Source: a virus. From it: a stretch of DNA of 64,000 nt. Below the pieces are notes generated by a model. That model was given only the letters and a program-made list of their open reading frames with translations, searched no databases and had not been told where the DNA came from. The stretch lies in the IMG/VR virus record IMGVR_UViG_3300038425_000174; one strand, 5' to 3'. Both the position numbers and the translations under genes were made by a program. This document shows, piece by piece, positions 38,909 to 63,821 of the stretch; position 1 is the stretch's first letter, and every line of letters starts with the position of its first letter.

Positions 38909-39170
38909 GCGCGCCGACATAACAGGATCGCTGTAACGTTCGCAGCTTCGGAAGCCCCTCCCCTAGCGATCGATCCCCACTCGCTGGGTTCAGGGCTTCT
39001 TGGGCCGGAACGGCGCCACCGCGAACCCTAACAGAAGCAAGGCGTCCCCCGAGCCAGTCCTGAGCCCTGGAGACGCCCTGTAGTACAGGAGGATCAGCGA
39101 ACCTACCATAGTCTAGTCCCGCAGTCAAATAGTCCCCAAGCCTATCCGATCATCCTGCTAGGCTGGAACG

Positions 39171-39413
39171 GTGCCACGCAGCACGCCCAGCCAGGCGCTT
39201 GCGGAGCTTCTCTTGCAGCTCCGAGAGGAACGCGGGATGTCGCGCGAAGCACTCGCGGTCAAGGCGGGGATCACAGCCACGGCCCTGAGCCACATAGAGC
39301 GGGGGATCAGCTCTCCCGGTTGGGAGACTGTCGCCGCCATCGCCCTGGCCCTCGACGTGACTCTCGTTGAGATTGCCAGCGCGCTCGAAGGTGAGCTTCC
39401 ACCCGGGCTCTAG
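39171..39413 (+). CDS. XRE-family HTH repressor (leaderless)
   Basis: LREERGMSREALAVKAGITATALSHIERGISSPGWET; TAGGCT 6 nt before GTG; divergent from the leftward operon. Confidence 0.9.
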   Translation: MPRSTPSQALAELLLQLREERGMSREALAVKAGITATALSHIERGISSPGWETVAAIALALDVTLVEIASALEGELPPGL

Positions 39414-45239: not shown

Positions 45240-48113
45240 GTGGACGAGGCGCTTCCGTCGCAGCCACCCAAAGACGGGGCTCCAGACCGTCGGGATTCGG
45301 TGGTCCGCTGGTTCAGGCAAGCTGTGGCCGTGGTCCGTCCTAGCCGAAACGACATCCGAGAGTCCGCTCGCGCCTTCGCCCACGAGTGGGAGGGAGAGAC
45401 GAGGGAGCGCGGAGAGGCGCAGAGCTTCTGGACCGACTTCCTCCTGATCTTCGGAATCCAGCGTCGCCGCGCCCACGCGGCATTTGAGCGGCACGCTCGC
45501 CGTAGCTCAACAGGCGGGGGCGGCTTCATGGACCTGTTGTGGCCGGGCATGCTGCTAGCCGAGCACAAGTCGGCTGGCGAGGACCTCGATGAGGCGATCG
45601 ACCAGGCCCTCGATTACGTCGAGAGCCTGGACGACCGGGAGATGCCCCGCCTCGTCGTGGTCTCCGACTTTGCCCGAATGAAGATCCTCGATCTCGAAGA
45701 CGAAGCACCTGAAGCCTTCGAGTTCCCGTTGGCGGATCTCCCCCGTGAGGTTGATCGCTTTCTCGTGCTCGCCGGGTACGTAAGCCGCAAGTTCGAGGCC
45801 GAGGATGCGGTCAACGTCCAGGCGGCCGAGCTACTCGGCAAGGTGTACGACGAGATCGCGGCGACTGGCTATCCCGGTCACCAGCTCCGCATCTTCATTG
45901 TGCGAGTCCTCTTCTTGCTCTTTGGAGACGACACGGGCCTGTGGCCTCGCGAGCAGTTCGCCGATCTTGTACGCAACCGAACGGCCGAAGACGGATCTGA
46001 TCTCGGAATGTGGCTCGGGCGCCTCTTCATCGCCCTCGATACAGAGCAGAGCCATAGGACTACGGCGCTCGATGAGGACATCGCCGCATTCCCGTTCGTC
46101 AACGGCGGCTTGTACCAGGAGCGCATTGACCCGCCCGACACAACGCGTGCGATGCGGGATCGGCTGCTCGATGCGAGCGCGTTCGACTGGTCGAAGATCA
46201 GCCCGGCCGTCTTCGGGTCGATGTTCCAGTCCGTGATGGACCCTCAAGCGCGGCGCCACCTGGGTGCGCACTACACTTCCGAGGCCAACATCTTCAAGCT
46301 CATCCGACCGCTCTTCCTCGATGCACTTGAAGCGGAGTTCGTGGCGTGCGGCTCCTCGAAGGCTCGGCTCCGAGCCTTCCACGAGAAGCTCGGGGAGCTG
46401 ACGTTCCTTGATCCCGCCTGTGGCTGCGGCAACTTCCTAGTGATTGCCTATCGCGAGCTGCGACGGCTGGAGCGCGAAACCATTCTCCGGCTGAACCCCG
46501 GAGATGTCCAGATGACGACGGAACTGCACACATTGCGGAAGGTGTCTCTCGATCAGTTCTATGGCATCGAGGTCGAGGAGTTCCCCGTCCGGATCGCAGA
46601 GACCGCGATGTACTTGGTGGACCACTTGGAGAACGAGGAGCTTGGTGCCTCGTTCGGAGTCAACATCCCAGACCTCCCGCTCACGGGGTCGGCTGAGATT
46701 CGCTGTGCCAATGCCTTGCAAGTCCCGTGGGAAGAAGTTCTGGACCCGAAGGAATGCTCATTTCTGCTCGGCAACCCACCGTACGGTGGCAAGCACCTGC
46801 TTGATGACGAGCAGAAGGCAGACCTAGCCCGCATCTTTGCGGGCCACCCCCAGGGCGGATCGTTGGATTACGTGAGCGGTTGGTTCAAGCTTGCGGCCGA
46901 CTACCTAGCAACGAGTGCCGGTACGGCGATCGGAGCGTTCGTTGCTACGAACAGCATCACCCAGGGCGAGCAAGTACCGGCGCTCTGGCCGCTACTACAC
47001 GCGGCAGGGCTGCACATCATGTTCGCGTGGCGCACGTTCGACTGGACAAGCGAAGGACGCGGGAAGGCGCACGTCCACGTCGTCATCATTGGTTTCGGTC
47101 GGTCCAGGCAGGCTCCCAGCGACACCCTCTATGAGTACGACGGGGAGACAGGCACCGCTGTTGCGCTCAAAGTGCCGACGATCAACGGATACCTGGTTGC
47201 CTTCGATGAGGTCTACCCGGCTTCCAGGACGCAGCCGCTCGTGGCTGTCCCGCATGTCGTCTACGGGTCCAAGCCTGCCGACGACGGCCACCTCCTGCTA
47301 ACGGCCGAGGAGGCCGAGGAGGTCGGACGTACGGACCCCATCGCGGCGAGTTACATCCGGCCTCTGATGAGTGCGACAGAGTTTCTCAGCGGTGAAGATC
47401 GCTTCTGCTTCTGGCTCGAAGATGCCAATCCGGCGGAGGTTCGTCTCTCGCCAACGCTTACCGCGAGACTCGATGCGGTGCGCGCCTTCCGCGAAGCCTC
47501 CACGAAGGCGCAGACGAAAGACATGGCGCTCACGCCTGGACTGTTCGCCGAGGTACGTAGACCAACAGGCGATTTCATCTTTATCCCGATTCACGCAAGC
47601 GCGGCACGTCGGCTGATCCCGATGGGGTTCGTCGCAGCGGACGAGAACGCGATCGTCCATAACAGCGGCGCCTACGTGCAGGGAGCCGACCTCGCGCTCT
47701 TTGGCATTCTGCAATCGGAGATGTTCTCGGTGTGGCAGCGTGTCGTAGGGGGGCGAATCAAGAGCGACTACCGGTTCAACAATCGGTTGGTGTACAACAC
47801 CTTCCCGTTCCCTACGAACACAACGGACCACCAGCGCGAGCGCATCGAGGCGGCAGTCGACGGAGTGCTTTCGGCACGGGCTTCGCACCCTGATTCGTCA
47901 CTGGCCGACCTCTACCATCCGCTCACCTCCCCAGGCGACCTAGTAAGAGCGCATCGACGATTGGACCAGGCTGTGGACGGAGCATTTGGTCGTCGGAGCC
48001 GCCTCGGCGAGGCCGAGCGGATGTCGTTTCTCTTCGCAGAGTACGTTCGCCTGGCGAACGCGGGGCAACTCCCAGCCACTGTGGGCGCGCGACAGCGGCG
48101 CGCACCAGCGTAA
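45240..48113 (+). CDS. MmeI-like type IIL restriction-modification enzyme (fused endonuclease + N6-adenine MTase)
   Basis: EAQSFW...MDLLWPGMLLAEHKS nuclease motif, GAHYTSE, LDPACGCGNFL, GNPPY; 957 aa. Confidence 0.9.
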   Translation: MDEALPSQPPKDGAPDRRDSVVRWFRQAVAVVRPSRNDIRESARAFAHEWEGETRERGEAQSFWTDFLLIFGIQRRRAHAAFERHARRSSTGGGGFMDLLWPGMLLAEHKSAGEDLDEAIDQALDYVESLDDREMPRLVVVSDFARMKILDLEDEAPEAFEFPLADLPREVDRFLVLAGYVSRKFEAEDAVNVQAAELLGKVYDEIAATGYPGHQLRIFIVRVLFLLFGDDTGLWPREQFADLVRNRTAEDGSDLGMWLGRLFIALDTEQSHRTTALDEDIAAFPFVNGGLYQERIDPPDTTRAMRDRLLDASAFDWSKISPAVFGSMFQSVMDPQARRHLGAHYTSEANIFKLIRPLFLDALEAEFVACGSSKARLRAFHEKLGELTFLDPACGCGNFLVIAYRELRRLERETILRLNPGDVQMTTELHTLRKVSLDQFYGIEVEEFPVRIAETAMYLVDHLENEELGASFGVNIPDLPLTGSAEIRCANALQVPWEEVLDPKECSFLLGNPPYGGKHLLDDEQKADLARIFAGHPQGGSLDYVSGWFKLAADYLATSAGTAIGAFVATNSITQGEQVPALWPLLHAAGLHIMFAWRTFDWTSEGRGKAHVHVVIIGFGRSRQAPSDTLYEYDGETGTAVALKVPTINGYLVAFDEVYPASRTQPLVAVPHVVYGSKPADDGHLLLTAEEAEEVGRTDPIAASYIRPLMSATEFLSGEDRFCFWLEDANPAEVRLSPTLTARLDAVRAFREASTKAQTKDMALTPGLFAEVRRPTGDFIFIPIHASAARRLIPMGFVAADENAIVHNSGAYVQGADLALFGILQSEMFSVWQRVVGGRIKSDYRFNNRLVYNTFPFPTNTTDHQRERIEAAVDGVLSARASHPDSSLADLYHPLTSPGDLVRAHRRLDQAVDGAFGRRSRLGEAERMSFLFAEYVRLANAGQLPATVGARQRRAPA

Positions 48114-49897: not shown

Positions 49898-50452
49898 CTA
49901 GTGAATGTCCTTTGTGGCCGCGCAGCCTTCGCCGAGCTTATTCAGCATGGTGTCGAAGCGGTCCGCGATCGGTTTGATCTCCTCTTCACCGAACCCTGGC
50001 GCCCCTTCTTCGGCCTTTCTCATGATGAGGGTGCCGAGCGCCCGCGCCTCCTGCGCGGCTTCGATCATGTAGCGGTCGAGGGTCTGGGCGCGGTCGAGCT
50101 TGTCCGTCTTCTCGCCGAGCCACTCGCCTTTACTCTTCATGCGGTCAAGCACTGCTCCTGCCATTGATGTCTCCTTGGTGGTTGGGTTGAGCTGGTAGCG
50201 TACCGTGTCGAACCTGATGCTCGCGACAACACCGGGCGGCAGAAGAGGCTCAAGCCGCTCCAGTTCCCGCCTCATATCCTCCTCGGTCTCGCCGTAACAG
50301 ATCACCACGGTCGCGTCGTCCAGACCGCTTTCCCGCGCCTGTCGACCTCTGATGAGGATGGGCTCGCCTTTACGAAGCTGCCTCATTTCGGTCTCTGACA
50401 GACCTAGAAGGACGAGGTGCTTCCCGTACGGCGTGGTGCGGGCGCGGAGCAC
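49898..50452 (-). CDS. GLS...GxP paralog family member 2, fused to a helical C-terminal unit
   Basis: Internal SD AAGGAG + ATG near 50164 suggests a second in-frame start. Confidence 0.55.
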   Translation of the reverse strand: MLRARTTPYGKHLVLLGLSETEMRQLRKGEPILIRGRQARESGLDDATVVICYGETEEDMRRELERLEPLLPPGVVASIRFDTVRYQLNPTTKETSMAGAVLDRMKSKGEWLGEKTDKLDRAQTLDRYMIEAAQEARALGTLIMRKAEEGAPGFGEEEIKPIADRFDTMLNKLGEGCAATKDIH

Positions 50453-50707
50453 AGCGACATCAATAGTAGCGAATTGCGATGTGCTCCAGACACAGCAATT
50501 CCTCGCAAATTGCGATGACCTTCTTCCACTCCCTTCTGGAATGCCGCAGTCCTAGGGCCTGCCTTGGACATACGGCGGGTCCACACTCCTCCCGTAGAAC
50601 CGCTGGTCCTCCTCCCAGTCCTCGCGGTTGACGCTCATCCAGCCTTCGCAGCCCTCCTCCCCGCAGCCGCAGGGCCGGACGACACGTCCCCGCCGTCATC
50701 GCCGCGG

Positions 50708-50995
50708 TCACCGTGCCATAGCTATGATCACCGGCTTCAGTAGTACCAGTGTTTCCATTGCCACGATCTGTTCCGTCGATCCCTCGGGCACCAGTCCACG
50801 CTTCTCAAGGCGGGCCATCAGCTCCGCATCCGTGGGTGCGTTGATGATGAGGATCGGAACACCGAGCTTCGCATCCTGTGCGATCTTATGGCCCACGCTC
50901 ATGGGTTGGCCGGTCTTCAAGCGGGTGAAGTCCTTATCGCTGAGACCGATGCAAGCGGCCGACACGTCCTCTAGCTTGATGGGGGTGACAATCAT
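50708..50995 (-). CDS. GLS...GxP paralog family member 3
   Basis: IGLSDKDFTRLKTGQPM...KLGVPILI...LEKRGLVPEGS. Confidence 0.6.
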   Translation of the reverse strand: MIVTPIKLEDVSAACIGLSDKDFTRLKTGQPMSVGHKIAQDAKLGVPILIINAPTDAELMARLEKRGLVPEGSTEQIVAMETLVLLKPVIIAMAR

Positions 50996-51660
50996 GCCGC
51001 CTCCCGCGCGGCACGCAGGTGGTGGTCCCGGGAAGCCCGCAGTTCGTTGTGGACCTTCTTTGCTACACGCTCTGTGTTCTTTGGCCGTATCGGGAATTCC
51101 ACCGTCACGTGCCCCTTGCGAGTGAGCTGCGCCTGTCCGTCCTTCCCGGACCTACTGAAGGCCCATCCGTTGGCGATAGCTTTTCGGACCTCGATCTGGA
51201 GCGGCCTAGCGACCAGCTCAATCAGGCTCGGCTTACGCACGTTGCTGGAGTGCGGCTCCACCGTGGGCTCTGGCTCGGGCTCAACCAGTGCGTAGATCTT
51301 CCAATGCCCAAACCTCTCTTCCGTGTCATAGAGAATCCCCTCCTCCACGAGGGGTCCGACCCTCAATCTGAGCGTCGGTATTGGCACCCCGGTCCTGGCT
51401 GACCACTCGCCCAAAGTGAAGGTCCGGAGCTGCTCTGCGACCTGCCGAATGAGTGTGTCCGAGATACGTTCCCTCCTCGGGGGAACGAAGTCCGGGGGAG
51501 CCTCATTCAGCTCACGCTCGATCGCCGCTTTGCGCGTCTCCAGGTAGGCGATCCTCGCTGGGATTTTCTCCAGCTCGTCTTTGAGCTGGTCTCTGTGGAT
51601 GCGTTCTCGCCTGAGGACGGCCTCCGGCGAGTCGTCGACGAATAGTGCCGTGGCCATCAC
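50992..51660 (-). CDS. Coiled-coil / winged-HTH protein with a HicA-like C-terminus
   Basis: FTLGEWSARTGVPIPTLRLRVGPLVEEGIL (wHTH); NGWAFSRSGKDGQ...VTVEFP. Confidence 0.5.
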   Translation of the reverse strand: MMATALFVDDSPEAVLRRERIHRDQLKDELEKIPARIAYLETRKAAIERELNEAPPDFVPPRRERISDTLIRQVAEQLRTFTLGEWSARTGVPIPTLRLRVGPLVEEGILYDTEERFGHWKIYALVEPEPEPTVEPHSSNVRKPSLIELVARPLQIEVRKAIANGWAFSRSGKDGQAQLTRKGHVTVEFPIRPKNTERVAKKVHNELRASRDHHLRAAREAA

Positions 51661-52481
51661 GCACGACTCCGTGCAGCCTGCTTCGGGGTCGAGCGGTAGA
51701 CGTCTCTGAGAACCTCGGTCACGAACTTGGGCGTGGTAGTGTGTACACCCTTACCTTCCCGGAGCGCCACCGCTCGTTTACTCACATCTGATGGGGTGAC
51801 GTTTTTGACCCTGTCGATGAAGCGGTCCTCGTCCAGGTCACGCGTGTCTCTGACGAAGTAATGCAGTCCCCGCAGGATGTCCTGCCTTGTCGCGAGGGGC
51901 ATCCCCTTCCACACCGACCTGATCAAACGCAGCATCGTGCGCAGACGCTCGGGGTCCTCTTTGTAGACCGTCTCCAGCACCCGTACGGCCTGTATGCTCT
52001 CCCAGTGAGTCTGAGTGGTGGTGTCGCCGATGAAGAAGCCCTCGGACTCGACCATGCTCTTGATCGCTATCGCCGTGCTATTCCCGGCGATGAGGTCGGC
52101 GTTGAACCGCTGGAAGCTGGTTATCGCCTTACGGAGGCGTTGGAACTTCGAGAAGAGCGTCGCCTCCTCCTCTTCCGTAAGCTCGTAGAAGACGAGGCAT
52201 GGGGCCTCTTTGAGTCCCAACTGTTTCATTGCCTCCCGGCGCTGCTGTCCGTCGATGACGGAGTACCTCTTCCCTTTTCCCCGGCGTTCGGAGACGATCA
52301 GGGTCCCGACGAGCGCCGGCTCGAAGTTCTCCACGATGGACTCGACGATGTTTTCGACCGGACGCTGGTAGCGAGCGATCCACATCTCCGATAGGGATAA
52401 CACCTGGAAGCGATATGGCCACTCGCTCGTTTTCGCGATGATCGCATCGATGTTCGGTCGCTCTACGGTTGCTGCGGGCAT
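51657..52481 (-). CDS. ParB N-terminal-like (DUF6551-type) protein
   Basis: YQRP...IVENFEPALVGTLIVSER...YSVIDGQQR. Confidence 0.8.
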   Translation of the reverse strand: MPAATVERPNIDAIIAKTSEWPYRFQVLSLSEMWIARYQRPVENIVESIVENFEPALVGTLIVSERRGKGKRYSVIDGQQRREAMKQLGLKEAPCLVFYELTEEEEATLFSKFQRLRKAITSFQRFNADLIAGNSTAIAIKSMVESEGFFIGDTTTQTHWESIQAVRVLETVYKEDPERLRTMLRLIRSVWKGMPLATRQDILRGLHYFVRDTRDLDEDRFIDRVKNVTPSDVSKRAVALREGKGVHTTTPKFVTEVLRDVYRSTPKQAARSRA

Positions 52482-52765
52482 TCTGTCTCCTTCTTCTTGT
52501 GGTTTCCAAGATCGTATCCGGCCCGTTCGAGAACGTAGCCCAGGTCAAGTTCCAGGCCCTTCGATAGGTGTACGTACGTGAGGATGGCTCTCGCGTCCAG
52601 CGTCTGGGCACCAAGCTCTATCCAGGTTACGTTACTATGGGACAGCCCTCCCCGATCCCCAACCTCCCTCACGGTCCAGCCGCGCGAGGTACGATATCGG
52701 CGGACCCAGCGTCCGAATGCCTCGGGCTTGGAGTCGGTCTCCTGCTTATGATGCGTGGCGGACAT
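52463..52765 (-). CDS. XRE HTH regulator, paralog 1
   Basis: FGRWVRRYRTSRGWTVREV...WIELG...KGLELDLGYVLERAGY. Confidence 0.85.
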   Translation of the reverse strand: MSATHHKQETDSKPEAFGRWVRRYRTSRGWTVREVGDRGGLSHSNVTWIELGAQTLDARAILTYVHLSKGLELDLGYVLERAGYDLGNHKKKETECPQQP

Positions 52766-53035
52766 TCAGGAAGACTCCTTGTTACGACCGTGTCCGAGAT
52801 CGTAGCCGGCCTTTTCAAGTACGTAGCCAAGATCCAGTTCCAGGCCCTTCGCGAGACGCATAAACGTGTCGATGGAGCTACTACCCAGCTTCCAGTTCGG
52901 CCGGTCGGTACGGTGACCGGCCTCCATGTATGGGAGGATGCTTTTAGGAAGCCCTCCGCGCTCGGCGACCTGGGCCTGAGTCCAGCCGCGTGACCTGCGG
53001 TAGCGGCGAAGCCAATGTCCAAAGTCCTCGGCCAT
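52766..53035 (-). CDS. XRE HTH regulator, paralog 2
   Basis: FGHWLRRYRRSRGWTQAQV...YMEAG...KGLELDLGYVLEKAGY. Confidence 0.85.
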   Translation of the reverse strand: MAEDFGHWLRRYRRSRGWTQAQVAERGGLPKSILPYMEAGHRTDRPNWKLGSSSIDTFMRLAKGLELDLGYVLEKAGYDLGHGRNKESS

Positions 53036-53037
53036 AG

Positions 53038-53301
53038 CTAATTCGCCCGTCCAGCATGTCCGGGATCGTATCCGGCCCGTTCGAGAACGTAGCCCAGGTC
53101 AAGTTCCAGCCCTCTGGCCAGACGCACGAATGTGGAGATGGGCCTCATGTCCAGGTTCCTACCCCCCCCCCGCTCCAGATAGAACATGATGCCCTCGGCC
53201 ATATCACCGCGGTCGGTGACGTCCTTCTGGCTCCAGCCGTGCGAGATACGATAGCGCCGAACCCAGCGCCCAAACGCCTCGTCTCTGCTCTTGTCGGACA
53301 C
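53038..53301 (-). CDS. XRE HTH regulator, paralog 3
   Basis: FGRWVRRYRISHGWSQKDV...YLERG...RGLELDLGYVLERAGY; TATGCT 9 nt before GTG. Confidence 0.85.
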   Translation of the reverse strand: MSDKSRDEAFGRWVRRYRISHGWSQKDVTDRGDMAEGIMFYLERGGGRNLDMRPISTFVRLARGLELDLGYVLERAGYDPGHAGRAN

Positions 53302-53314
53302 GGCTGCTGTAGCA

Positions 53315-53388
53315 TAGCAAACCGGGGCCGGGACTAAGTCCCGGCCCCGGTCCAGGAGGAGAGGAGATTTTCTCCGGTGCCCACTATA
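53315..53388 (-). ncRNA. Candidate ~60-nt sRNA with anti-SD tract and terminator
   Basis: TATAGT at 53383-53388; UCUCCUCUCCUCCU tract; 15-bp perfect inverted repeat 53321-53351 followed by UUGCU. Confidence 0.5.
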
Positions 53389-53408
53389 AACGGTTGTCGG
53401 CCGGATTG

Positions 53409-53603
53409 CTAGCCCTTTGGAAGGCTTAGCAGGTTGGTGGTTGGTACCTCCATTGAGGCGAGGAGGCTGTCGAGTTGCTCCGGCCAGAACCGTCGCTGGT
53501 CGCCTGGGGTTCGGCAGTAGCCGACGTGCCCTGCATCTGCCCAGCGGCGCAGCGTGGATACCGAGACTCCGAGATACCGGGCTGCTTCCGAAACGGTCAA
53601 CAT
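53409..53603 (-). CDS. Xis/BldC-like (HTH_17, MerR-type) DNA-binding protein, paralog 1
   Basis: MLTVSEAARYLGVSVSTLRRW...RTPGDQRRF. Confidence 0.85.
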   Translation of the reverse strand: MLTVSEAARYLGVSVSTLRRWADAGHVGYCRTPGDQRRFWPEQLDSLLASMEVPTTNLLSLPKG

Positions 53604-53636
53604 GCGATTCTCCGATCTTCGGGGTTAGATGCGGAG

Positions 53637-53846
53637 CTATCGACAAGTCCGGATAGGGACTTGAGCCCTCTCTGTCGCCGCGGTCCTGAAGAGATCGAGC
53701 TGGGCCTGGGAGTAGCGCCGCTGCCCTCCCGGAGTTCTATAGCAATGAAGCCAACCATCGTCGGTCCAGTCACGCAGAGAGTCCGTGGACACTCCAAGGT
53801 AGCGCGCCGCCTGCGGTGCGGTCATAATGGTCGTTGACGTCACCAC
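53637..53846 (-). CDS. Xis/BldC-like DNA-binding protein, paralog 2
   Basis: MTAPQAARYLGVSTDSLRDW...RTPGGQRRY. Confidence 0.85.
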   Translation of the reverse strand: MVTSTTIMTAPQAARYLGVSTDSLRDWTDDGWLHCYRTPGGQRRYSQAQLDLFRTAATERAQVPIRTCR

Positions 53847-53924
53847 TCCCGATAACCCCAGTCAACCAGTTTCGGCGGATATCGACGATCTCCTTCAACG
53901 CGCTTCCCCAATCGAGGTCGCCCT

Positions 53925-54227
53925 TCATGATGCCAGCGCCGCCAGCATCGCGCCGTCTTCAATACCGAGGCGTTTGCCGAACTCCACCCCCGCCAGGAAG
54001 ACGGAGAACGCGCCCGTCACCGTCGCACCCTCGGAGTCGGTCCGCTGGAGCGCCTGAGCGATCGTGCCGCTGAGGACGTCGCTCGCGTATAGACCCAGAC
54101 CGGCCACGGTCTCATCGGCGATGTCCCCGAAAACATGGTGGGTCTGCTCCAGGATCGTCCGCGGGCCTTCGGCGTCTTCGGCAATCAGCACGTCGATCGC
54201 CGTCTGGATGCGCTCCTCGATCGTCAT
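53925..54227 (-). CDS. Hypothetical protein
   Basis: SD GGGAG before MTIEER. Confidence 0.5.
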   Translation of the reverse strand: MTIEERIQTAIDVLIAEDAEGPRTILEQTHHVFGDIADETVAGLGLYASDVLSGTIAQALQRTDSEGATVTGAFSVFLAGVEFGKRLGIEDGAMLAALAS

Positions 54228-54375
54228 GCCAATCTCCCGATTGCGAGTGCGCCGCCCGACGCAATGAGAGCGACGGCCACTACCGTGGCCGCGAACCCTT
54301 TGACGGTGCCGCCGCCGTGGACCATGCCGGCGATAAGCCAAACCACTGCCGTGAGGTAAATCACCGCGGCGATCA

Positions 54376-54768
54376 TCAGAACGGCACCTCGTCGTCAACC
54401 GGCGGTGTGGTGTCCGGGGCCGGCTGGCGACCGTTCGCGCTCGACTGTAGGAACTGCACAGCGCTCGCGCTGACCTGCACGCGCTCGCGTTTGGTCCCGT
54501 CCTGGGCATCCCAGCGGCGCTGCACGAGCTTGCCTACGACACCGATACGGTGTCCCTTGCTCGCGTGTTTCGCCAGCGCCTCACCCTGCCTGCCGAAGAC
54601 CGTCACGTTGAAGAAGTTAGGGTAGTCCTCCCAACCTTCCCCCTTCTTGACAGATCCGTTCACTGCGATGCTTGCCTCGCAGAGACTTTTTCCGGTCGTC
54701 GTGGTGCGCAGCTCCGGGTCTCGGGTGAGCCGCCCGATCAGCGTTACGTTGTTCACATCCTGTGCCAT
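54376..54768 (-). CDS. ssb: Single-stranded DNA-binding protein
   Basis: NNVTLIGRLTRDPELR...; acidic tail DDEVPF. Confidence 0.95.
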   Translation of the reverse strand: MAQDVNNVTLIGRLTRDPELRTTTTGKSLCEASIAVNGSVKKGEGWEDYPNFFNVTVFGRQGEALAKHASKGHRIGVVGKLVQRRWDAQDGTKRERVQVSASAVQFLQSSANGRQPAPDTTPPVDDEVPF

Positions 54769-54779
54769 TGATTCTCCCT

Positions 54780-56122
54780 TTAGATTCCGACGTCGTGCGG
54801 GTTGATTCCGAGTACCATGCTCAGTGCTGCCGCCTGCTCGTAGGGGATGAAGATTTTGAGCCCTACCCACCCGTTACCATTTGACTTTGCACAGCAGCCC
54901 AGCGCTTCGCATAGCCTCAGGACCAGAACCTTGGGCTTGCCAGTGAATAAGGAGGAGCCGTAGTGGGCTCCATCTTCCGCCTCCATCTGTCGGAGCTGCT
55001 TGAGAAACGCCTTCGCGATCTCCAGCCTCTCTCCAGGATTTGCCAAGAACGCGTCGCGAAGGCGCTCGTTTGGTACCGCCCTCAGGTAAACCAGGTCGAC
55101 TAGAGCGTTCCCCTCTATACGCGGGTGCCTGGCACCCAGCTCTTTACAATGCAACACCCATCGACGAACGTCCTCGGAGGTGTACTGGCCCTGTGTCGCT
55201 TCAGCTGTGAGACTGTAGAGACGTAAATAGCACTTACCCAGCGCCTCCTCAAGCTCGTCGTTTCCCAGATGTCGTGCCTCCCGCTCAAGAGCCTTCCGTT
55301 CTCTGGTCAGAATGTCGACCTGCCCACGAATACGCTGCTCTAGCTCTAGCTGTCCCCGTGCCCACTCGGCGTCAGGATCGTCCTGCGCCATCGTAAGCGT
55401 AATCTGCTTTTGGTCGATCATGATGCTCCCCATGTTTTGACGTGCTCCTCACGCATAGCAACGGCACGATCACATGGTGGCTTGAATATTTCAACACTCT
55501 CGGAAAACCTACTCATTCCAATCACCCGCCTGACGGCTCCATGCGCCCATCGTCAGCAGCACTGCCCGGTCGTCACGGCATAGCCGTACGCGCTCCATAG
55601 CGGCCCTGTCGCGGGCCGCGGCTTCGTCCCGAGCCTCTTTAGCCGCCTTCACGCTGTCCACGCCCTTAGCGAGCGTTTCTGCGATCGTGGAGCCGTGCGC
55701 GACCTTGAGCGTGCCGACCGCGACCGCGAGCTGCTTGTGATACGCGCCCTCGGCCCCCGCGAGCGCCTTCCCCGCCAGCTCCGCGTCGGTGATCGCCTTG
55801 CGGTGTTCCCTGCTCACCGTCATGGCGGCCCTACGAAACTGCGGGTAGTCGTAGGGCTCGCTTCCAGTCAGGTCGTGGTCCAGGACCTCGTAGACCTCGC
55901 CGGTATCAGGGTCGGCAAGTGTCCTCATGAGAAGAGACGCTTCACTGTCTCCCGAGTGCTCCAGCGACGCTCCTGTGCGTCGACGAGCCGTTCGTGAGCG
56001 TCTGCCAGGGCGTCGGCCAGCTTCTGCGCCGTCGTGTCGGCACGCTCATGAACACGACGCGCCCTCTGGTGTGTCCGCAGGGCGGATACCTCGACTCGCT
56101 CCTGCTTGTTGAACGGAATCAT
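54780..56122 (-). CDS. Three hypothetical ORFs (54780-55433, 55509-55928, 55925-56122)
   Basis: Leftward, partly coupled; the second is coiled-coil. Confidence 0.5.
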
Positions 56123-56787
56123 GCCGTCACCTTTGTCTCGCTTGAGAGCCACTGTTCAACGTCCTCGGCCGCGTCGACATTCAGATGGCCGATCTTGCCC
56201 GTGTCCACACCCACGTCCGCGAGCTTCGCTATCAGCACGGGTCGTATCGTCAAAACGCCATTCTCCTGGCTGGCGAGCCCCACTTTCATGGCCTGTTCAA
56301 GGATCAGCTTCGCCCGATCGCTCGGTATCCTGGGCGCCGGCTGGCGCTCGGGCTGCTCGCTCACCTGGTCCTTCTCCGGATCATCCCCGGTGGGGATCAG
56401 CAAAAGGTTCAGCAAGAAATACTTGAGCGCACCCGTGTATGCCTTGTAAAGACCCTTGTCGCCCCCGACGTCGGCGCCAGCTCCGAGCCACGCGCACGTG
56501 TACTGATCTCCGTCGATGTCGAGGTTCACTAGCGTGTAGTCGATTTCGAGCGTCGTTAGAAAGCTCTTGCCGCCCGTCTCGGTGAAGTGGTCGAGCGAGC
56601 CCGGCACCACCTTCGGAACGAGCACGACGCGCGCCTTGTGCAGCTCCTCTCGGATCTGGCGCACCACGTCCTCGGAGCGCACGTAGCTGTAACCGAGCGT
56701 CTCGTTGCGTCCCTGCTTGGCTATTCCCGAGACGGCGTGCGACACGTCTGCGAGCTTCTCGGCGAGCGTCTTTACATCGCTGGACAA
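56119..56787 (-). CDS. ERF-family ssDNA annealing protein
   Basis: KQGRN...YSYVRSEDV...DKGLYKAYTGALKYFL...IPTGDDPE; SD AAGGAG before TTG 56787. Confidence 0.85.
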   Translation of the reverse strand: MSSDVKTLAEKLADVSHAVSGIAKQGRNETLGYSYVRSEDVVRQIREELHKARVVLVPKVVPGSLDHFTETGGKSFLTTLEIDYTLVNLDIDGDQYTCAWLGAGADVGGDKGLYKAYTGALKYFLLNLLLIPTGDDPEKDQVSEQPERQPAPRIPSDRAKLILEQAMKVGLASQENGVLTIRPVLIAKLADVGVDTGKIGHLNVDAAEDVEQWLSSETKVTA

Positions 56788-56872: not shown

Positions 56873-57757
56873 TCAACGAGGTGTCCCCTGACTGGCCCGA
56901 GGAGGTCGACCGGACCGTGCCGGCGCGAGCGCTTGAATCTCGCGCTTCGCCTTCTCAGCCGCCAGGTACGCCAGGAAGTGCTCAGGCGTGGCGCAGCTCC
57001 GAACCAGATCGTACGTCCCCTCCTCATGAGTGTTGAGCACATACTGCGCGTCGGTTGGCGAGAAGCCCATCTCGACGCCGGCTAGCTCGTAGCCGGCGAG
57101 CTGAGGAAAGTGACTCGTCGGGTACACACCCTTGCTCGTCTTCAGATCGACCAGGCACAGCACCGCCTCGGTGTTACAGCCGGAGCAGACCATGTCCGTA
57201 CTGTCGTCGGGTGGGTCGGGTTGACACTCCACGCACCACTTCTCGTTCGGCGGGTCCTGCTTCAGGCCCAGCTTCGTACCCGGCATGACGCAGCGGATGT
57301 CGTAGCGCCCCGCGAAGCCGTGCCTGACGGAGACCACCTGGACCTCGGTGGCGACGAACACGGGTCGATAGTCGAGGTACCAGCGGAGGAATCCCCGCAC
57401 GTGCCCACGGACCTTCTCCGGATACTTCGTCAGATCGCTGACGGTTCCGTCCTGGGCGAGCGCCTCTAGTGCATCATGGGTCCACGTTCCTTCCTGGCCG
57501 CGCTTGTTGCGCTTCGCGTTCGGGGTGAGCTTGCGTCGTTTCAGCTCCCCGCGCAGCTCCTCCACAGTGAAGGTGAGCTTGCCGGGGTCGTAGACCTCAC
57601 TCGCAGCCTCATAGCCCAGCCGCCATCCCCACCACGAGGCGGGTCCCCAGGCGTCGTCCCCGATCTTCGCGATCGTCGAGACACCTAGCAGCTTCTCACC
57701 ATTCAAGGTGTAACTGTGGGACGCGTCATCGTAGATGACGTCCGGACGCGTGATCAT
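56873..57757 (-). CDS. PD-(D/E)XK exonuclease with zinc-ribbon insert
   Basis: FAGRYD...VDLKT...QLAGY; CxxC...CxxC insert. Confidence 0.85.
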   Translation of the reverse strand: MITRPDVIYDDASHSYTLNGEKLLGVSTIAKIGDDAWGPASWWGWRLGYEAASEVYDPGKLTFTVEELRGELKRRKLTPNAKRNKRGQEGTWTHDALEALAQDGTVSDLTKYPEKVRGHVRGFLRWYLDYRPVFVATEVQVVSVRHGFAGRYDIRCVMPGTKLGLKQDPPNEKWCVECQPDPPDDSTDMVCSGCNTEAVLCLVDLKTSKGVYPTSHFPQLAGYELAGVEMGFSPTDAQYVLNTHEEGTYDLVRSCATPEHFLAYLAAEKAKREIQALAPARSGRPPRASQGTPR

Positions 57758-58395
57758 TATGAGCCCGCCTCATCCTGAGGCCAGCCGCTAAGAGGTCCTG
57801 CCGGAAGTCCGAGGTCTAGGTCTCTTGCCTTCTCCCACTTTCTAAGTACTGAAAGCGCCTGTTCCCGCTTGATGGGACCGAGGTACGGCCATAGGCAAAT
57901 CACCACGTGAAGCACGTCGTCGAAAGCCGCCACGGTGTAGTGCCAACACGTCGTCGTACCTGACGGCGGCCTGATGTATCCGATGCCCCCTACGGACCCC
58001 TTGAACCGAAGAAGCAGAAGGGGCGACTTCTGGACGACGGTGATCTGCGCCCTGCCCTTGGACCGTATGTTACCCTTTCTGTCTCGTTGAAGTGTGTGAT
58101 TGACGTTCCCCTCTCCGTCAAAAAACCCCGCCGCCCAAGCGATATCTGGCTGGCTAGCAAGCGCCCCATTCATCAGCGCCTTGCTTGACTCGTACGGTCC
58201 TATCAGCGTGCGGTAAAGCTCTAACTTCGCCCCCTCGATCGCGCCCAGCAGGTCATTGTAGGTCTGGTATGACTCGCCGCGCTGAAACCAGTACGATTCT
58301 AGCTGCCACGTTAGGATAAAGTTCAGCTCGCCGACCGTCGTCGGGCGACGTCCCCGCGTCAGCTCCTCCCTCACTTTCTCAGCTAGGTACGGCAT
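57757..58395 (-). CDS. Conserved phage helical domain (DUF6899-like) fused to a LAGLIDADG endonuclease
   Basis: GELNF...YNDLLGAIEGAKLELYR...PYE, then IAWAAGFFDGEG. Confidence 0.75.
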   Translation of the reverse strand: MPYLAEKVREELTRGRRPTTVGELNFILTWQLESYWFQRGESYQTYNDLLGAIEGAKLELYRTLIGPYESSKALMNGALASQPDIAWAAGFFDGEGNVNHTLQRDRKGNIRSKGRAQITVVQKSPLLLLRFKGSVGGIGYIRPPSGTTTCWHYTVAAFDDVLHVVICLWPYLGPIKREQALSVLRKWEKARDLDLGLPAGPLSGWPQDEAGS

Positions 58396-59152
58396 CGGTC
58401 CCCCTGTCGTCGAGATCCGGATGGTGCTTGCGAAAGTACATGAGCGCGAGCGCGTGAAACACCACCGACGCCATGTGGTCGCATTCGGTCTCCGGATCGA
58501 TGTCCTCGCCCTGCCAGAAGGCGACAGCGTGGCGGATGAGTGAGCTGAAGCTCAGTTTCCAGGCGTAGCCCTTGCACCAGTTGTGCTCGGAATACTTTGC
58601 CGCGCCTCGCTCGTAAAGCCTGGCGACCTCGTCCATCGGCTCCCAGGGGATCAGGTCGTAGCGCTCGCGCTTGCTGCCCTTTTCACCACCGGTCTTCTCG
58701 TTCACCATCCTGACCTCGCTCGGCACGAACGTCACGACCCTCTTTGGCTTCGGGGACGAATAGCCGTGCGCGATATCGACTTCCTGTGGGCACACCTCCT
58801 CCAGCGATGGATACTGGAGGATCGGTAAACCACACAGCCGTCCGACATAGCTCTCCAGTTTCGCTCCACGTGACTCCAGCCAGCCTGGCAGCACCACGAT
58901 CGCTTCGATCCCGTCGTCGGCGATCAGTTCCACGTCCCGAGCGAGAAGTTTGCCCCAGGTATCGCCAAGCGCATAGCCTGCGGGGTCGCCGTCCACGGAC
59001 GACAGGGCGGCGGCGCGCGCTGCTGGCGAGTCCAGCTCGGCTGGCGAAATGACCTCATGGCCACGCTCGCGAAGATCCTTAGCGGCAGCGTCGAACGCAG
59101 GGAAGTTCATCTGGGGGTAGTGGCTCATCGGGCCGCCGCAGTAAACCTTCAT
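58379..59152 (-). CDS. DUF4406 (nucleoside deoxyribosyltransferase-like) fused to a dATP/dGTP diphosphohydrolase domain (DUF5664)
   Basis: VYCGGPMS..NFPAF...LPGWLESRGAKLE; RYDLIP...GAAKYSEHNW..G...SLIRH...DPET..HM. Confidence 0.8.
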   Translation of the reverse strand: MKVYCGGPMSHYPQMNFPAFDAAAKDLRERGHEVISPAELDSPAARAAALSSVDGDPAGYALGDTWGKLLARDVELIADDGIEAIVVLPGWLESRGAKLESYVGRLCGLPILQYPSLEEVCPQEVDIAHGYSSPKPKRVVTFVPSEVRMVNEKTGGEKGSKRERYDLIPWEPMDEVARLYERGAAKYSEHNWCKGYAWKLSFSSLIRHAVAFWQGEDIDPETECDHMASVVFHALALMYFRKHHPDLDDRGTDAVPS

Positions 59153-59279
59153 CGCGCGAGATCCTTTCCGCACTTGATGCACCGTCGCACGACTTCCCCG
59201 TCCTCGTATTCCACGACGGGCCACGGCCGCGGCTGGCCGTCCTGGCCCTTGCAGGCGCATGGTTTCAGAATGTCGGCCT

Positions 59280-59613: not shown

Positions 59614-59922
59614 TTACAGGCTACGTGCCCGACCCACACTTCTATGCCGGGCGCGCTCAATTCCACCCGCAGCACGCACCAGCGCGACCTGCTCCTTCAG
59701 GGTGAGGTGCGCCAGTAGGTCAAGCTCGTGAGCGTCGTAGTCGTCGTGACAACCGCAGCCGCCCTTGATACGCGAGCACAGCGGGACGATGAGGTCCGGA
59801 TCGTCGAAGCCTCCACCGCCGAGCGAGCGGTCCCAGAGGTGCGCCGCGTCGCATCTGTCGGCCGGCACTCCGCACACCCGGCACTGGCCCTCAAGCTCGA
59901 CCTTTTCACGAGCGGGGTTCAT
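59614..59922 (-). CDS. Small HNH-like protein
   Basis: CRVCG...AAHLW...VPLC...CH; ATGA overlap with the primase gene. Confidence 0.6.
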   Translation of the reverse strand: MNPAREKVELEGQCRVCGVPADRCDAAHLWDRSLGGGGFDDPDLIVPLCSRIKGGCGCHDDYDAHELDLLAHLTLKEQVALVRAAGGIERARHRSVGRARSL

Positions 59923-60770
59923 CCGAAGATCCCCTGTAGTCGCTCCCGGCACTCCATGAAGTCGCTGCCTTGCAACGGCATCGGATAACCCCACAGCAGG
60001 CCCGCAAGCGTATAGATATTGCCCCCGAGCACCTGCTGGCCGTTGAGCGGTTCGCACGCGAAGCAGCTCCAGAGGGCACCGTCCACCTTGAAACTGGGCG
60101 TGCGCTCACAGCCGTCCTTGTGGAACGGGCACGTCACCCAGCCGAAGTCATCGGCACGTCTGCCGGCGATCCTCTCGACGTACACGCTCGCTGGTATCCG
60201 CCGTAGGTCGTCGTCGGTGGCCGTGTTGCGTTGCCGGGCCGCGGTTACGACCGGCCGGCGCATTCGCGCAAGCCACGGCTCGGGCAGGTCGGCGATCCGC
60301 ACTTCCGCAGGATCTCCATCGACTGACCAGAGATAGGCAGATCCCGAAGGATGAATCGACGGCGGCGCCACGATGTAGCCGGCGTCCTTGATGTCAACCC
60401 CGTCACCGAGCGAAGCTCTGAACGATCCGCCAGGGTGCCTGAAGAGGATGTGCTGGCCACCACCGCCGGAGAACGCTTCGAAAGTTATAGGGAGTTTGCC
60501 CAAACTCGCTATAAGCCCATGCAGCGTGTCCTCACCGCCGTTCCGCGGATCGATGTCCAGCACGACAAGGTTGGACTGCTCGCAGTTGATTCCAATGTTT
60601 GCGGATGGCCTGAGCTGCCACCAGCGGAACACCGTGCCCAGATCCGTGGTGGAGTCGTTCTTGCCGTGAGACACGAGGTAGGGATCGGGACGCTTCCCCC
60701 GTGGCATCAGGGGGAGCACCGACCACCCCCGTAGCGCGTAGTCGCAGGCGGCGTCGCGTAGATCGCTCAT
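59919..60770 (-). CDS. Bifunctional primase/polymerase (Prim-Pol) with C-terminal CHC2 zinc finger
   Basis: ANIGI...VVLDIDPRNG...SGGGGQH...YIVAPPSIH; CPFH...PSF...CFAC. Confidence 0.9.
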   Translation of the reverse strand: MSDLRDAACDYALRGWSVLPLMPRGKRPDPYLVSHGKNDSTTDLGTVFRWWQLRPSANIGINCEQSNLVVLDIDPRNGGEDTLHGLIASLGKLPITFEAFSGGGGQHILFRHPGGSFRASLGDGVDIKDAGYIVAPPSIHPSGSAYLWSVDGDPAEVRIADLPEPWLARMRRPVVTAARQRNTATDDDLRRIPASVYVERIAGRRADDFGWVTCPFHKDGCERTPSFKVDGALWSCFACEPLNGQQVLGGNIYTLAGLLWGYPMPLQGSDFMECRERLQGIFG

Positions 60771-61926
60771 CGCCGGAACAGCTTTCGCAAGCGGCGCTCA
60801 GGAAGCTCGGCCAGCCCGATCGACCGTGCGAATGCGGCGAGATCGGTTGCCGTTTTCGCCACCTTTTGGCAACTCGCAACATCCGCGCTGGTGATCCGGC
60901 GGCTGTGTGGCGGGTACCACTCGTCGACGAGCCACGACGGCGGCACGAATTCACCTGCTCTCGTCACAACGGGCCTCATAACAGCAGCAGTCCGTTGGCG
61001 ACGGCGAGGCAGATCGACGCCACGCCCTGTCGGTGGTTGCCGGACGCGACGTCGATCACCCCGAGCACCACGAAGGCGCTCACGGCGAGATAGATACACG
61101 CTAGCCTCATCCGATGGTGGTCGGCGTCATCAGTCACGTTCCATCTCGCGGCGGCGCGCTTCCCTATCCCTGACCTCCTGAGCGGTTTCGATCTGCCCGG
61201 GCTCAGGGGACGCTTCCATGACTGCTGCCAGTAACTCGTCGTGACTCGGAAGCTCCATCATCCGTACTACCTCAAGGGCCTTTTCGATGGTGCCAGCGGC
61301 TCGGATTTTTACGAGATCCCGTAAAAATCCGAGCGCGATCCGCATGTATTCCGAGGCCGTCATGGGACCGCCTACCAGTCCATCCCGCACCGTCCCCCAG
61401 TCACCATCATGCCGTGTCTTCTTCTTGCGAACCACTAGGCCCGCACCCGCGAGGATTGCGTAGCCGAGAGCACCCGATTGAAAGGTGCCGACCCCGGCGT
61501 GCGCCTTACGGACGATGTTGTCCACGGCCCTGGGGGTAACCGCCGCCTGAAACGTCGGCAGCGCCAGCTCGGTGCTCATCCTGACTCCTTCAGTTGTTTG
61601 GTATAGACCTTCCGCACCTCCATCGCAGACTCGTTGTCCAGTATCGACACGGCCCGCTTCATCGCGGCGAGCATGGCCCTCTCGCGCCGTTCCGCCTCAC
61701 GCATGTTGTGCAGGAATACCTGGGCTTCCGCCCGTCCACCCGTGTCGTGAATCAGCTCGAACTCAGGCGGCGCGTCCCCAATCGGGAACCAGCGCTCATA
61801 CACCGTGCCGTCCTTCATGTAGACGAATAGGAACTCCCCCTCGCTGTCTCCGTAGCGCTTCTCCATGCGCACGTAGAGCATCGGGAGTCCCTCGGGTGTG
61901 CGGTAAATCTGTCCAGGCGCGAGCAT
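60767..61926 (-). CDS. Three hypothetical ORFs (60767-61099, 61130-61579, 61576-61926)
   Basis: The first gene of the operon starts 8 nt after a TAGCTT -10. Confidence 0.55.
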
Positions 61927-61934
61927 CGGGACAA

Positions 61935-62060
61935 AAGCTAGGCGCCCGACCCACACTCGCCCAGTGTGGGTCGGGTCGTTATGCTGAAGCCGGACGTCGA
62001 GACTGTTTCTTTTGTAGCTAGGGTCCTCTAGCTAAGAGTGTGGGTCCGTCTGCTACCTTT
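61935..62060. promoter_or_regulatory. Back-to-back promoters carrying the GTGTGGGTC motif
   Basis: Perfect 13-bp inverted repeat 61945-61957 / 61963-61975; -10 hexamers at 61935-61940 (-), 61980-61985 (+) and 62054-62059 (+). Confidence 0.7.
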
Positions 62061-62171
62061 CATAGTGCAGTCCAATGCTCGACTGTTCCTCGAACTTCGA
62101 GGAACAGGATAGGTAGGAACCGAACAGGGGCACACTCGGGAAACGGAGCCCCCATATTACGGGGGAGGGGT

Positions 62172-62848
62172 ATGTCTAAGACGACTGGTTGGCAGTCGCC
62201 GTTTTCCAGGGCTGACAAACGCCAGAAGCAGGCTCACCTTCATCAAGAACTTCTGGTTATGGTGCCGAATCTGACGAGCGCACCACCTCACGGCGTACGG
62301 ACGAGGACGAAGATCAAGGAACTGCGCCTCAGTCGCAAGCAGCGCAACCGGCACGCCGTCGAACGCAACCTCTTGTCGTACATCGAGTGCTCGAATTCAA
62401 AGTCGCCGACGGCGACTTTGAAAAGGACGGAGGCTGGTTGTGGGGCGTGACGACATCTGCACCGTCGCCCGGCGCATAGACGACTACCGGGCGATCACCG
62501 GTCGCGGCCTTCGCGGGCTCTTCAAGTCCGTCGACATCGACGAGGAGGATCTCGGCCACCTGGCCCGCCACGCATCGCAGCTTGCGGATCTGGAGCCGGT
62601 CTCTTTCGCATGGGGACTTCTGTTCGGACTGATGCTCGCTCGCGAGCAAGCACCGCTAGAGGAACTCACAGATCATGATCTTTCCGAGCTACTTCAAGGC
62701 TGACGTGTGCGACGAATGCCCCGATCCAGGACTTTGCGCGGCTGAAGGCTGCCTTGCCGATCTACCGCCCTACGACGATCCGGACATTATGTTCGACGAT
62801 CCCGACGCGGAGGCGATCGAGGTCTGGATGCGAGAGGTGTCAAGTTGA
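62172..62848 (+). CDS. Three small hypothetical ORFs (62172-62450, 62440-62703, 62675-62848)
   Basis: SD before the first two; overlapping chain. Confidence 0.45.
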
Positions 62849-62861
62849 GCGTCGCAGTTCG

Positions 62862-63821
62862 ATGAGTCTTGAGGACGCAATCGCCGACATCGGGCGCACA
62901 TTCGGCGCTGGAAGCATTCTCCGGCTCGCCAGCTCACCGTCACTTGATGTGGAGGTAGTGCCTACGGGCGCCCTCACTCTTGACATGGCTCTGGGAGTGG
63001 GCGGACTGCCGCGTGGTCGCATCGTAGAGATCTTCGGTCCCGAGTCCTCCGGTAAGACGACGCTCGTGCAGCACGTCATCGCCAACGCCCAGGCTGCCGG
63101 CGGTGTGTGTGCGTTCATAGACGCCGAGCACGCGCTTGATCCCGCGTATGCCGAGGCCACCGGGGTGAACACGAAGGAGCTTCTTTTCTCTCAGCCGAAC
63201 AGCGGCGAGGAGGCGTTGGAGATCGCGAGCAGGCTTGTTGCGTCCGGTGAGGTAGCGGTGATCGCGATCGACTCCGTCGCAGCACTCACGCCGAGGGCTG
63301 AGCTTGCCGGTGAGATGGGCGACGCCTCGATCGGGCTCCAGGCACGGCTGATGGGGCAAGCGATGCGCAAGCTCGCCGGTCCAGCGTCCCGAAGCAAAAC
63401 GCTGATCGTCTTCACCAACCAGATCCGCGAAAAGGTCGGGGTCATGTTCGGCTCGCCGGAGACTCAGCCCGGTGGTCGAGCACTGAAGTTCCAGGCGACG
63501 CAGCGTCTCGACATCCGCCGTATCGGTACGGATAAGGATTCAGCCGGCGCGGCCTTCCAGAACCGGGTTCGTGTAAAGGTCGTGAAGAACAAGGTCGCTT
63601 CGCCATACCGTCAGGCCGAGTTCTCCATTCGCTTCGGAGAAGGTATTGACACGGTCGGCGAGCTGCTCGATCTTGCGGTTACGCAAGGCGTCATCAAGAA
63701 GGCCGGCGCCTGGTTTCAGGTTGATGGCGATCGGATACAGGGCTACGAGGCTGCACGCACCGCGTTGATCGACCTCCCGGATCTGATGGCATCTATTCGC
63801 GCCACGGCGCTCGACGTATGA
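62862..63821 (+). CDS. recA: RecA recombinase
   Basis: GGLPRGRIVEIFGPESSGKTT, FIDAEHALD, IDSVAALTPRAE, QARLMGQAMRKL, FTNQIREKVG; lacks the acidic C-terminal tail. Confidence 0.97.
   Translation: MSLEDAIADIGRTFGAGSILRLASSPSLDVEVVPTGALTLDMALGVGGLPRGRIVEIFGPESSGKTTLVQHVIANAQAAGGVCAFIDAEHALDPAYAEATGVNTKELLFSQPNSGEEALEIASRLVASGEVAVIAIDSVAALTPRAELAGEMGDASIGLQARLMGQAMRKLAGPASRSKTLIVFTNQIREKVGVMFGSPETQPGGRALKFQATQRLDIRRIGTDKDSAGAAFQNRVRVKVVKNKVASPYRQAEFSIRFGEGIDTVGELLDLAVTQGVIKKAGAWFQVDGDRIQGYEAARTALIDLPDLMASIRATALDV

Follow-up and report, generated by a model that had tools for sequence, protein, structure and literature searches.

Tandem XRE-family paralogs, a shared 46-bp repeat and a one-gene hybrid allele in a peat phage

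IMG/VR virus record IMGVR_UViG_3300038425_000174 carries three adjacent genes for small XRE-family proteins that are alike in their helical framework and unlike in the helix expected to read DNA, and the first and last genes of the array share a perfect 46-bp repeat. Are these genes a set of regulators with different specificities or the leftover of a duplication, and does the repeat serve to collapse the array? We analysed a stretch of 64,000 nucleotides from this record (62.5% G+C), hereafter the window. The trio lies in tandem on the minus strand and is listed here in the order of the array.

53038 to 53301, minus strand: par3, first of the array, single-domain XRE protein of 87 amino acids with a GTG start; recognition helix AEGIMFYLE
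52766 to 53035, minus strand: par2, XRE protein of 89 amino acids; recognition helix PKSILPYME, with the loop after helix 3 longer by 5-6 residues
52463 to 52765, minus strand: par1, XRE protein of 100 amino acids; recognition helix SHSNVTWIE, its tail overlapping the start of a DUF6551 gene by 19 nt

Apart from the 2 nt between the par3 stop and the par2 start, no spacing separates the open reading frames (ORFs); the par2 stop (TGA) abuts the par1 ATG, which has AAGGAG 8 nt upstream. The 87-residue par3 is also called as a gene in independent assemblies.

We favour, with a probability of roughly 0.55, the reading that the trio encodes regulators which bind DNA sequence-specifically, with one scaffold carrying three specificities, and which can pair with themselves and probably with one another. 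All three genes are intact and, as tandem paralogs, diverged long ago; they sit in the early recombination operon, on the minus strand, of an uncultured, probably temperate peat myophage. Their common scaffold (helices 1, 4 and 5 and the AGYD turn) has been kept, and the positioning and recognition helices of the helix-turn-helix have diverged together with the following loop; each paralog would most likely read a different DNA site. Since the scaffold is common to all three, the proteins probably pair with themselves and with each other. The 46-bp repeat, a gene-conversion patch, is also where the crossover lies in a natural copy-number polymorphism, with three genes in most samples and a single in-frame hybrid in at least one.

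A common scaffold with divergent recognition helices

The paralogs are 51-57% identical in pairwise amino acid alignment (par3 against par1 or par2, 51-52%). All three have FG(R/H)W(V/L)RRYRxS(R/H)GW in helix 1 and (K/R)GLELDLGYVLE(R/K)AGYD in helices 4-5, and they differ throughout the stretch that reads HSNVTWIE in par1, KSILPYME in par2 and EGIMFYLE in par3. The AlphaFold2 model of par1 (predicted local distance difference test, pLDDT, 84.6) has five helices, at residues 13-27, 32-39, 43-51, 60-71 and 75-81; its helix 3 (43-51, HSNVTWIEL) coincides with the divergent stretch, which is therefore the recognition helix in a fold of the five-helix XRE type. In XRE regulators it is helix 3 that reads the DNA. 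ORFs, alignment and model thus agree with the initial annotation, which had described tandem paralogs with both motifs in common and unlike recognition helices.

Family assignment is clear for two of the copies by Pfam HTH_31 (par1 33.4 bits and par2 32.0 bits, cut-off 27), and par2 also matches HTH_3 (30.2 bits, cut-off 23). par3 scores 15.1 bits with HTH_31, under the cut-off, and 99.7 bits with a hidden Markov model of the subfamily described below. The top Foldseek matches of the par1 model are dimeric XRE regulators, namely 5woq of M. smegmatis, ClgR, C.BclI, C.Esp1396I, SinR and 434 Cro, with template modelling (TM) scores of 0.55-0.65, and identity of the paralogs to any solved protein is at most 30%. 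Judged by their sequences, the three are new members of the XRE family. They resemble the single-domain dimeric regulators (5woq, ClgR, C-proteins, the SinR DNA-binding domain and 434 Cro) in their five-helix fold and length of 75-100 residues, and differ from them in forming a distinct motif-marked subfamily encoded by three adjacent genes. Pfam found no C-terminal oligomerisation domain and no S24 peptidase domain in par1, par2 or par3.

Over helix 1 all three pairs have a ratio of nonsynonymous to synonymous substitution rates (dN/dS) of 0.05-0.14; the figure is 0.10-0.26 for helices 4-5 and 0.54-0.72 across helices 2-3 and the loop. These values are rough because dS between the paralogs (0.75-1.2) is saturated. 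The scaffold helices are clearly under purifying selection by this measure, and all three ORFs have stayed intact over a very long divergence. Decay of the extra copies, with dN/dS near 1, had been named beforehand as an outcome that would count against a working set; the intact ORFs and scaffold ratios well below 1 in every pair run the other way.

Three lines of evidence bear on pairing between different paralogs. The fused relative P0031 joins two domains of the subfamily in one chain, which offers comparative support. In complex prediction, par1 with par2 scored 0.53 (best of 3 controls, 0.02), with contacts agreeing at least 78% between runs and partner pLDDT of at least 79. That score points weakly to a pair: 58 of 80 solved complexes attained the mark, as did 2 of 110 mismatched pairs, and passing scores of 0.60 or less included only 7 of the 80 solved complexes together with both passing mismatches. 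The prediction ran on custom alignments, and XRE dimers are among solved structures, so the pass may reflect likeness or memory. As precedent, heteromers are documented for XRE paralogs of Caulobacter and phage phiCbK (PMC10688885). The initial annotation had gone further and proposed a combinatorial set of homo- and heterodimers with different operators; of this, the heterodimers have become plausible and the different operators stay conjecture.

The 46-bp repeat and the one-gene allele

52510 to 52555: par1 copy of the exact 46-bp repeat, codons LELDLGYVLERAGYD
53064 to 53109: par3 copy of the exact 46-bp repeat
52510 to 53063: 554-bp segment that the one-gene hybrid allele lacks; the junction may fall at any point of the 46-bp repeat

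The repeat, noticed at the outset as perfect, is exact and non-extendable, and it is the longest exact repeat in the window, the next longest being 29 nt. Other exact direct repeats are 17110-17138 = 30859-30887 (29 nt) and 31165-31191 = 31435-31461 (27 nt).

par1 and par3 are 65% identical in nucleotides, and their block of identity has a sharp boundary on either side. None of 100,000 codon-column shuffles yielded an identical run of 46 nt (p<1e-5). Codons for the same amino acid are identical between par1 and par3 at 15 of 15 positions inside the block and at 12 of 29 outside it (Fisher p=8e-5). The repeat is therefore not due to chance. Protein-level selection does not account for the identity; par2 encodes nearly the same peptide over the block and differs at 6 of 14 such codons. 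As DNA the 46-mer is not conserved in the relatives, where the longest common word is 12 nt, so a conserved DNA site does not explain the identity either. The sequence pattern is best read as recent gene conversion between par1 and par3 over a short tract. No conversion tract was found between the two domains of the fused relative.

Recombination between the two copies had been predicted to delete 554 bp and leave one hybrid gene, and this allele occurs in nature. Window DNA was matched in 22 peat or wetland metagenome runs (Logan contigs), none of them recorded as RNA, and the contigs of four runs were aligned to 51500-54300. In run X7 (SRR12951267) a contig of 2771 nt (L008) with a depth of 9.25 joins 52509 to 53064, skipping exactly 554 bp, with 97 nt on its shorter side. 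Its ORF, which ends in RNLDMRPISTFVRLARGLELDLGYVLERAGYDLGNHKKKETECPQQP and a stop, consists of the par3 body and the par1 tail in frame and keeps the overlap with the DUF6551 gene. The rest of X7 tells the same story: contig cover is zero over 52534-53003, the run holds 0.68 of the sampled words of a 1801-bp stretch against 0.69 expected without the 554 bp, and it is not among the runs that match the inner 508 bp, of which X1-X6 contain 0.92-1.00. The flanks of L008 are 99.96% identical to the window, and so the deletion event is recent. The first four bases of L008 read GCCC where the window has GGGT, at the edge of a G tract, and are probably a contig-end error.

The three-gene form or inner parts of it were found in at least nine assemblies or runs (L001-L005, L009, L010, L014, X5, X6 and X8). 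Independent JGI and ENA contigs (L001-L003) span all three genes at 99.9-100% identity, and thus the array is not an assembly artefact.

It is scarcely credible that the deletion allele, the triplication or both were produced by assembly. A repeat of 46 bp is a classic cause of mis-joins, a single Logan contig (k=31) from a single run shows the deletion, and the end of contig L004 coincides exactly with the repeat boundary. Runs X5 and X6, however, which carry the inner segment, have contig ends 30 nt (k-1) inside each copy of the repeat, the pattern that a real two-copy repeat should give, and in them the inner segment is assembled (also in L006, L007 and L012). In X7, by contrast, the contig is continuous across the junction and words of the inner segment are missing. 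The triplication, for its part, is spanned by contigs from three different assemblers.

Deletion between the direct repeats would be the simplest route to the one-gene allele, the direction of change being our inference from the sequences, and the ERF and SSB annealing system of the phage is a plausible agent of the recombination. The syntenic contig that encodes P0033 has one short XRE gene upstream of DUF6551 (as read from the gene table), which appears N-terminally shortened. The readable part of P0033 groups with par3 (96/83) and its tail is par1-like, the architecture of the hybrid; the one-gene state may for that reason be ancestral or recurrent. The genetic switch that had been envisaged is not supported, because a single genome cannot by itself undo the deletion; the array could come back through exchange between co-infecting genomes.

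A second site in the array that may vary is a homopolymer.

53162 to 53171, minus strand: G10 tract on the par3 coding strand (codons RGGGR, directly following helix 3), the window's longest homopolymer

By base composition alone such a tract is unsurprising (0.84 runs expected), and it stands out only against the depletion of homopolymers in this genome, where 4 G or C runs of at least 7 were observed against 27.6 expected, a 7-fold deficit. The tract is G10 in the window and in L001, L002, L012, L013 and L014, and G11 in one ENA assembly (L003), in which par3 is frameshifted into an immediate TAG stop; with G9 a stop would follow five codons later. G runs commonly give rise to Illumina and assembler errors, and the contigs of all four aligned runs break at the tract. 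The G11 variant may be natural slippage or a sequencing error. Contingency loci, which vary phase through homopolymers, offer a likeness in the G10 tract within an ORF, the stop within 0-5 codons on gain or loss of one base and a natural assembly with G11; the difference is that par3 has one variant contig only.

Taken together, the hybrid and the tract invite another explanation, in which the array is surplus left by duplication, plays no part in combination and is eroding by repeat deletion and homopolymer slippage, and its polymorphism is neutral or mildly deleterious. The hybrid that dominates X7, the G11 frameshift, the single copies in six relatives and on the P0033 contig, and the hybrid-like architecture of P0033 all fit erosion. 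We nevertheless hold it to be rather improbable: three ORFs remain intact despite saturated synonymous sites, with a scaffold constrained in every pair, at least nine assemblies or runs retain three genes or inner parts of the array, and in one relative two diverged domains persist as a single fused protein.

Several of these observations also count against three working regulators, and others join them. The one-gene allele dominates an independent peat metagenome, and with the single copies in six relatives it indicates that three copies are dispensable. The allele itself comes from one contig, and contigs cannot show minor variants; the frameshift in L003 and the roughness of the dN/dS values belong on the same side. 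par3 has no Shine-Dalgarno sequence at its start and lies behind the following element.

53321 to 53351, minus strand: perfect hairpin of 15+15, GC-rich, then UUUGCUAU; 19 nt before the par3 GTG

The hairpin folds at -54.3 kcal/mol (z=-3.5) and is by its sequence terminator-like or operator-like; a start with no Shine-Dalgarno sequence, 19 nt behind a terminator-like hairpin, makes par3 expression uncertain. Transcription may read through into the array or begin at a promoter of its own, and the array may be leaderless. No sigma-70-like promoter was found near the array and no operator was identified for its proteins. A search of 50000-56000 for Rfam families also gave none.

The subfamily and its DUF6551 neighbour

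51657 to 52481, minus strand: DUF6551 gene with a ParB-CTPase fold, 274 amino acids, conserved downstream partner of the XRE gene or genes (Pfam DUF6551, 5.6e-19)

The trio belongs to a wider XRE subfamily. The GenBank phage collection gave no DNA or protein matches, a scan of viral and metagenome contig collections with the paralog alignment found no relatives, and a word-based protein search returned only the cluster of the window itself. An exhaustive HMMER search, which likewise gave no close relative outside that cluster, yielded about 30 proteins of 138-279 amino acids with an N-terminal XRE domain and both motifs, here in the forms FGxWLRRxR and RLAxGLxLELGYVLxKAG(Y/F)DxG, kept at about 30% overall identity. 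In the alignment A82 and G83 are near-invariant across the subfamily and position 84 is mostly aromatic. The subfamily is seen only in metagenomic phage contigs. Because both motifs are family-wide, the conserved C-terminus that had drawn notice in the trio is a subfamily signature and not a product of the triplication.

Of 10 distinct phage loci, 9 have a subfamily XRE gene directly upstream of DUF6551, and in most the two genes overlap by 4 nt; the tally includes the window, and in the eight relatives with DNA available the DUF6551 proteins are 38-51% identical to that of the window. Six loci have one long XRE copy (L015/19, L016, L017, L018, L020 and L032). In another, two subfamily domains are fused in a chain of 172 amino acids (P0031, in L026-28); the P0033 contig carries one short copy and the window three, and the clade L029-31 has no XRE gene upstream of DUF6551. 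A two-XRE locus in another context, L025 (P0142), was set aside since its second gene lacks helix 1. Searching genome contigs for DUF6551 gave weak relatives only, at 24-33% identity and in unrelated taxa.

Long-form relatives have a conserved helical C-terminal extension of 50-130 amino acids (RLxRVE...LGRALGxLDLVTERLRE). The three proteins of the window are without it and end 6-19 residues after the AGYD turn, so that these copies are unusual twice, in number and in the missing extension.

The AlphaFold2 model of the DUF6551 protein (pLDDT 91.5) matches Noc, ParB, pNOB8 ParB-N and KorB by Foldseek, and aligns with ParB over the helical domain too; the protein has invariant Q39-R40 and D77-G78-Q79-x-R81. 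According to a recent survey, DUF6551 proteins of phages that have the ParB fold can bind CTP or ATP in vitro (bioRxiv 10.1101/2025.10.10.680097).

Such a neighbour raises the alternative that the paralogs serve the DUF6551 protein as site-specific targeting or 'clamp-locking' partners, much as KorA and TrbA serve KorB on plasmid RK2. Each paralog would recognise an operator of its own by its divergent helix 3, and by the C-terminal surface common to all (GLELDLGYVLERAGYD, which includes conserved aromatics) it would recruit or arrest the same NTP-dependent ParB-like protein; copy number, altered by 46-bp recombination and G10 slippage, would set the number of target-site classes. The model draws on the synteny at nine loci, on the subfamily-wide retention of both motifs with A82, G83 and the mostly aromatic position 84, on the fold, invariant residues and nucleotide binding of DUF6551 proteins, and on the precedent of KorA and TrbA, paralogs with divergent DNA-binding domains whose conserved C-terminal aromatic docks on KorB (PMC13768133). 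Against it, no XRE-DUF6551 fusion occurs among about 215 retrieved proteins, no KorA-family Pfam match was obtained (E<=0.1), and the clade L029-31 has DUF6551 with no upstream XRE gene. The short forms could not bind if the extension of the long forms is the contact surface, and DUF6551 may have a DNA-binding part of its own, given that its ParB match includes the helical domain. By analogy such a partnership is possible but, on balance, unlikely.

RK2 KorA and TrbA are small paralogous helix-turn-helix dimers with divergent DNA-binding parts and a conserved C-terminal part, encoded with KorB (PMC11790492, PMC13768133). The likeness to par1-3 is one of architecture only, in the paralogs, their divergent DNA-binding parts, a conserved part and the ParB-family gene alongside. 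KorA and TrbA have no sequence homology to par1-3, DUF6551 is another ParB-fold family, and the conserved part lies inside the XRE domain in par1-3 but is a separate C-terminal domain in KorA and TrbA.

Phage setting, known systems and meaning

The early minus-strand region has the gene order Prim-Pol, MazZ-like diphosphohydrolase fusion, ERF, SSB, two HTH_17/MerR-like genes, XRE trio and DUF6551. The members nearest the trio are as follows.

about 56119-56787, minus strand: ERF annealing protein gene, same operon as the trio
54376-54768, minus strand: SSB gene, same operon as the trio
53637 to 53846, minus strand: second small HTH_17/MerR_1-like gene (MerR_1 1.5e-9)
53409 to 53603, minus strand: small HTH_17/MerR-like (Xis-like) gene, directly upstream of the array (Pfam 5.6e-12)

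At 53637-53928 on the minus strand the annotations conflict, as public gene calls put a 52-residue ORF at 53770-53928, overlapping the 69-residue ORF at 53637-53846. From the sequence the 69-residue ORF is the more likely of the two to be a real gene, which would make two tandem Xis-like genes.

The phage is of a tailed type with sheath and baseplate genes, and its serine integrase (27852-29300) makes it probably temperate. Small XRE proteins can be repressors. The initial annotation had offered broad heteroimmunity as an alternative role, which would make the trio immunity repressors against related phages. We regard this as very unlikely. The genes are co-directional within the early ERF-SSB-HTH_17-DUF6551 operon, 24 kb from the integrase; each protein is a single domain with no oligomerisation or S24 peptidase domain; and the subfamily is tied to DUF6551, not to integrases. 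A fourth, distant XRE gene for 83 amino acids at 39162-39410 (plus strand) matches phage repressor PHROGs better than the trio does and appears from its sequence to be the better candidate for an immunity repressor.

Other features of the genome were recorded in passing. A full-length RecA gene (62754-63821, plus strand, 5.7e-115) is present besides ERF and SSB. Near it and near the start of the early region, perfect or near-perfect palindromes cluster within 1.4 kb (61299-62652); they could act as operators or terminators for the phage's many HTH proteins.

61299-61334: palindrome, 18+18
61945-61975: palindrome, 13+13
62083-62107: palindrome, 12+12
62396-62422: palindrome, 13+13
62633-62652: palindrome

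At 45240-48113 (plus strand) lies a gene for an MmeI-family protein of 957 amino acids, in which all five MmeI Pfam domains match (N-terminal, helicase spacer, methyltransferase, target recognition and C-terminal). The fusion at 58379-59260 (minus strand) joins DUF4406 to a dATP/dGTP diphosphohydrolase N-terminal domain (MazZ-like) and adjoins the Prim-Pol gene (59919-60770); as predicted proteins the two hint at nucleotide-pool editing or base modification. Also in the early operon, a gene at 57757-58395 (minus strand) has a DUF6899 domain and a faint LAGLIDADG match, and may encode a homing endonuclease.

Paralogous XRE regulators and tandem duplication are already familiar. RtrA, RtrB, CdxA and CdxB, paralogs in Caulobacter, and the phiCbK phage protein TgrL associate as homomers and as heteromers when assayed by two-hybrid, and their peaks in chromatin immunoprecipitation sequencing are in part distinct (PMC10688885). 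That set resembles ours in that XRE paralogs have radiated and one of the copies belongs to a phage, but the Caulobacter genes are dispersed over the chromosome and their products use a similar DNA motif, whereas par1-3 are in tandem in one phage operon, with strongly unlike recognition helices and natural copy-number variation. Repetition of XRE domains by tandem duplication is also seen in multi-HTH proteins (two domains in P0031, 4-10 in others), from which the copies in the window differ in being separate genes with their own start and stop codons. The top matches to the XRE profile (P0002-P0014) were metagenomic proteins of this kind, with 4-10 tandem XRE domains per chain of 360-850 amino acids. 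Three things are new about the cassette: its long-diverged tandem copies show a natural 3-to-1 polymorphism by recombination, it holds a homopolymer tract, and its link to a ParB-CTPase-fold gene is conserved.

A collapse of the array that was predicted from sequence only was then encountered in an independent metagenome, and both alleles can be compared in nature. With a constrained scaffold set against free recognition helices after a very old duplication, the trio is a compact natural experiment on the divergence of DNA specificity. The motifs also link the trio to a conserved module of two genes that includes the one for the DUF6551 protein, of a family whose members bind CTP or ATP. If the XRE proteins serve DUF6551 as DNA-targeting partners, the spread of KorA/TrbA-like clamp partners would become testable in phages.

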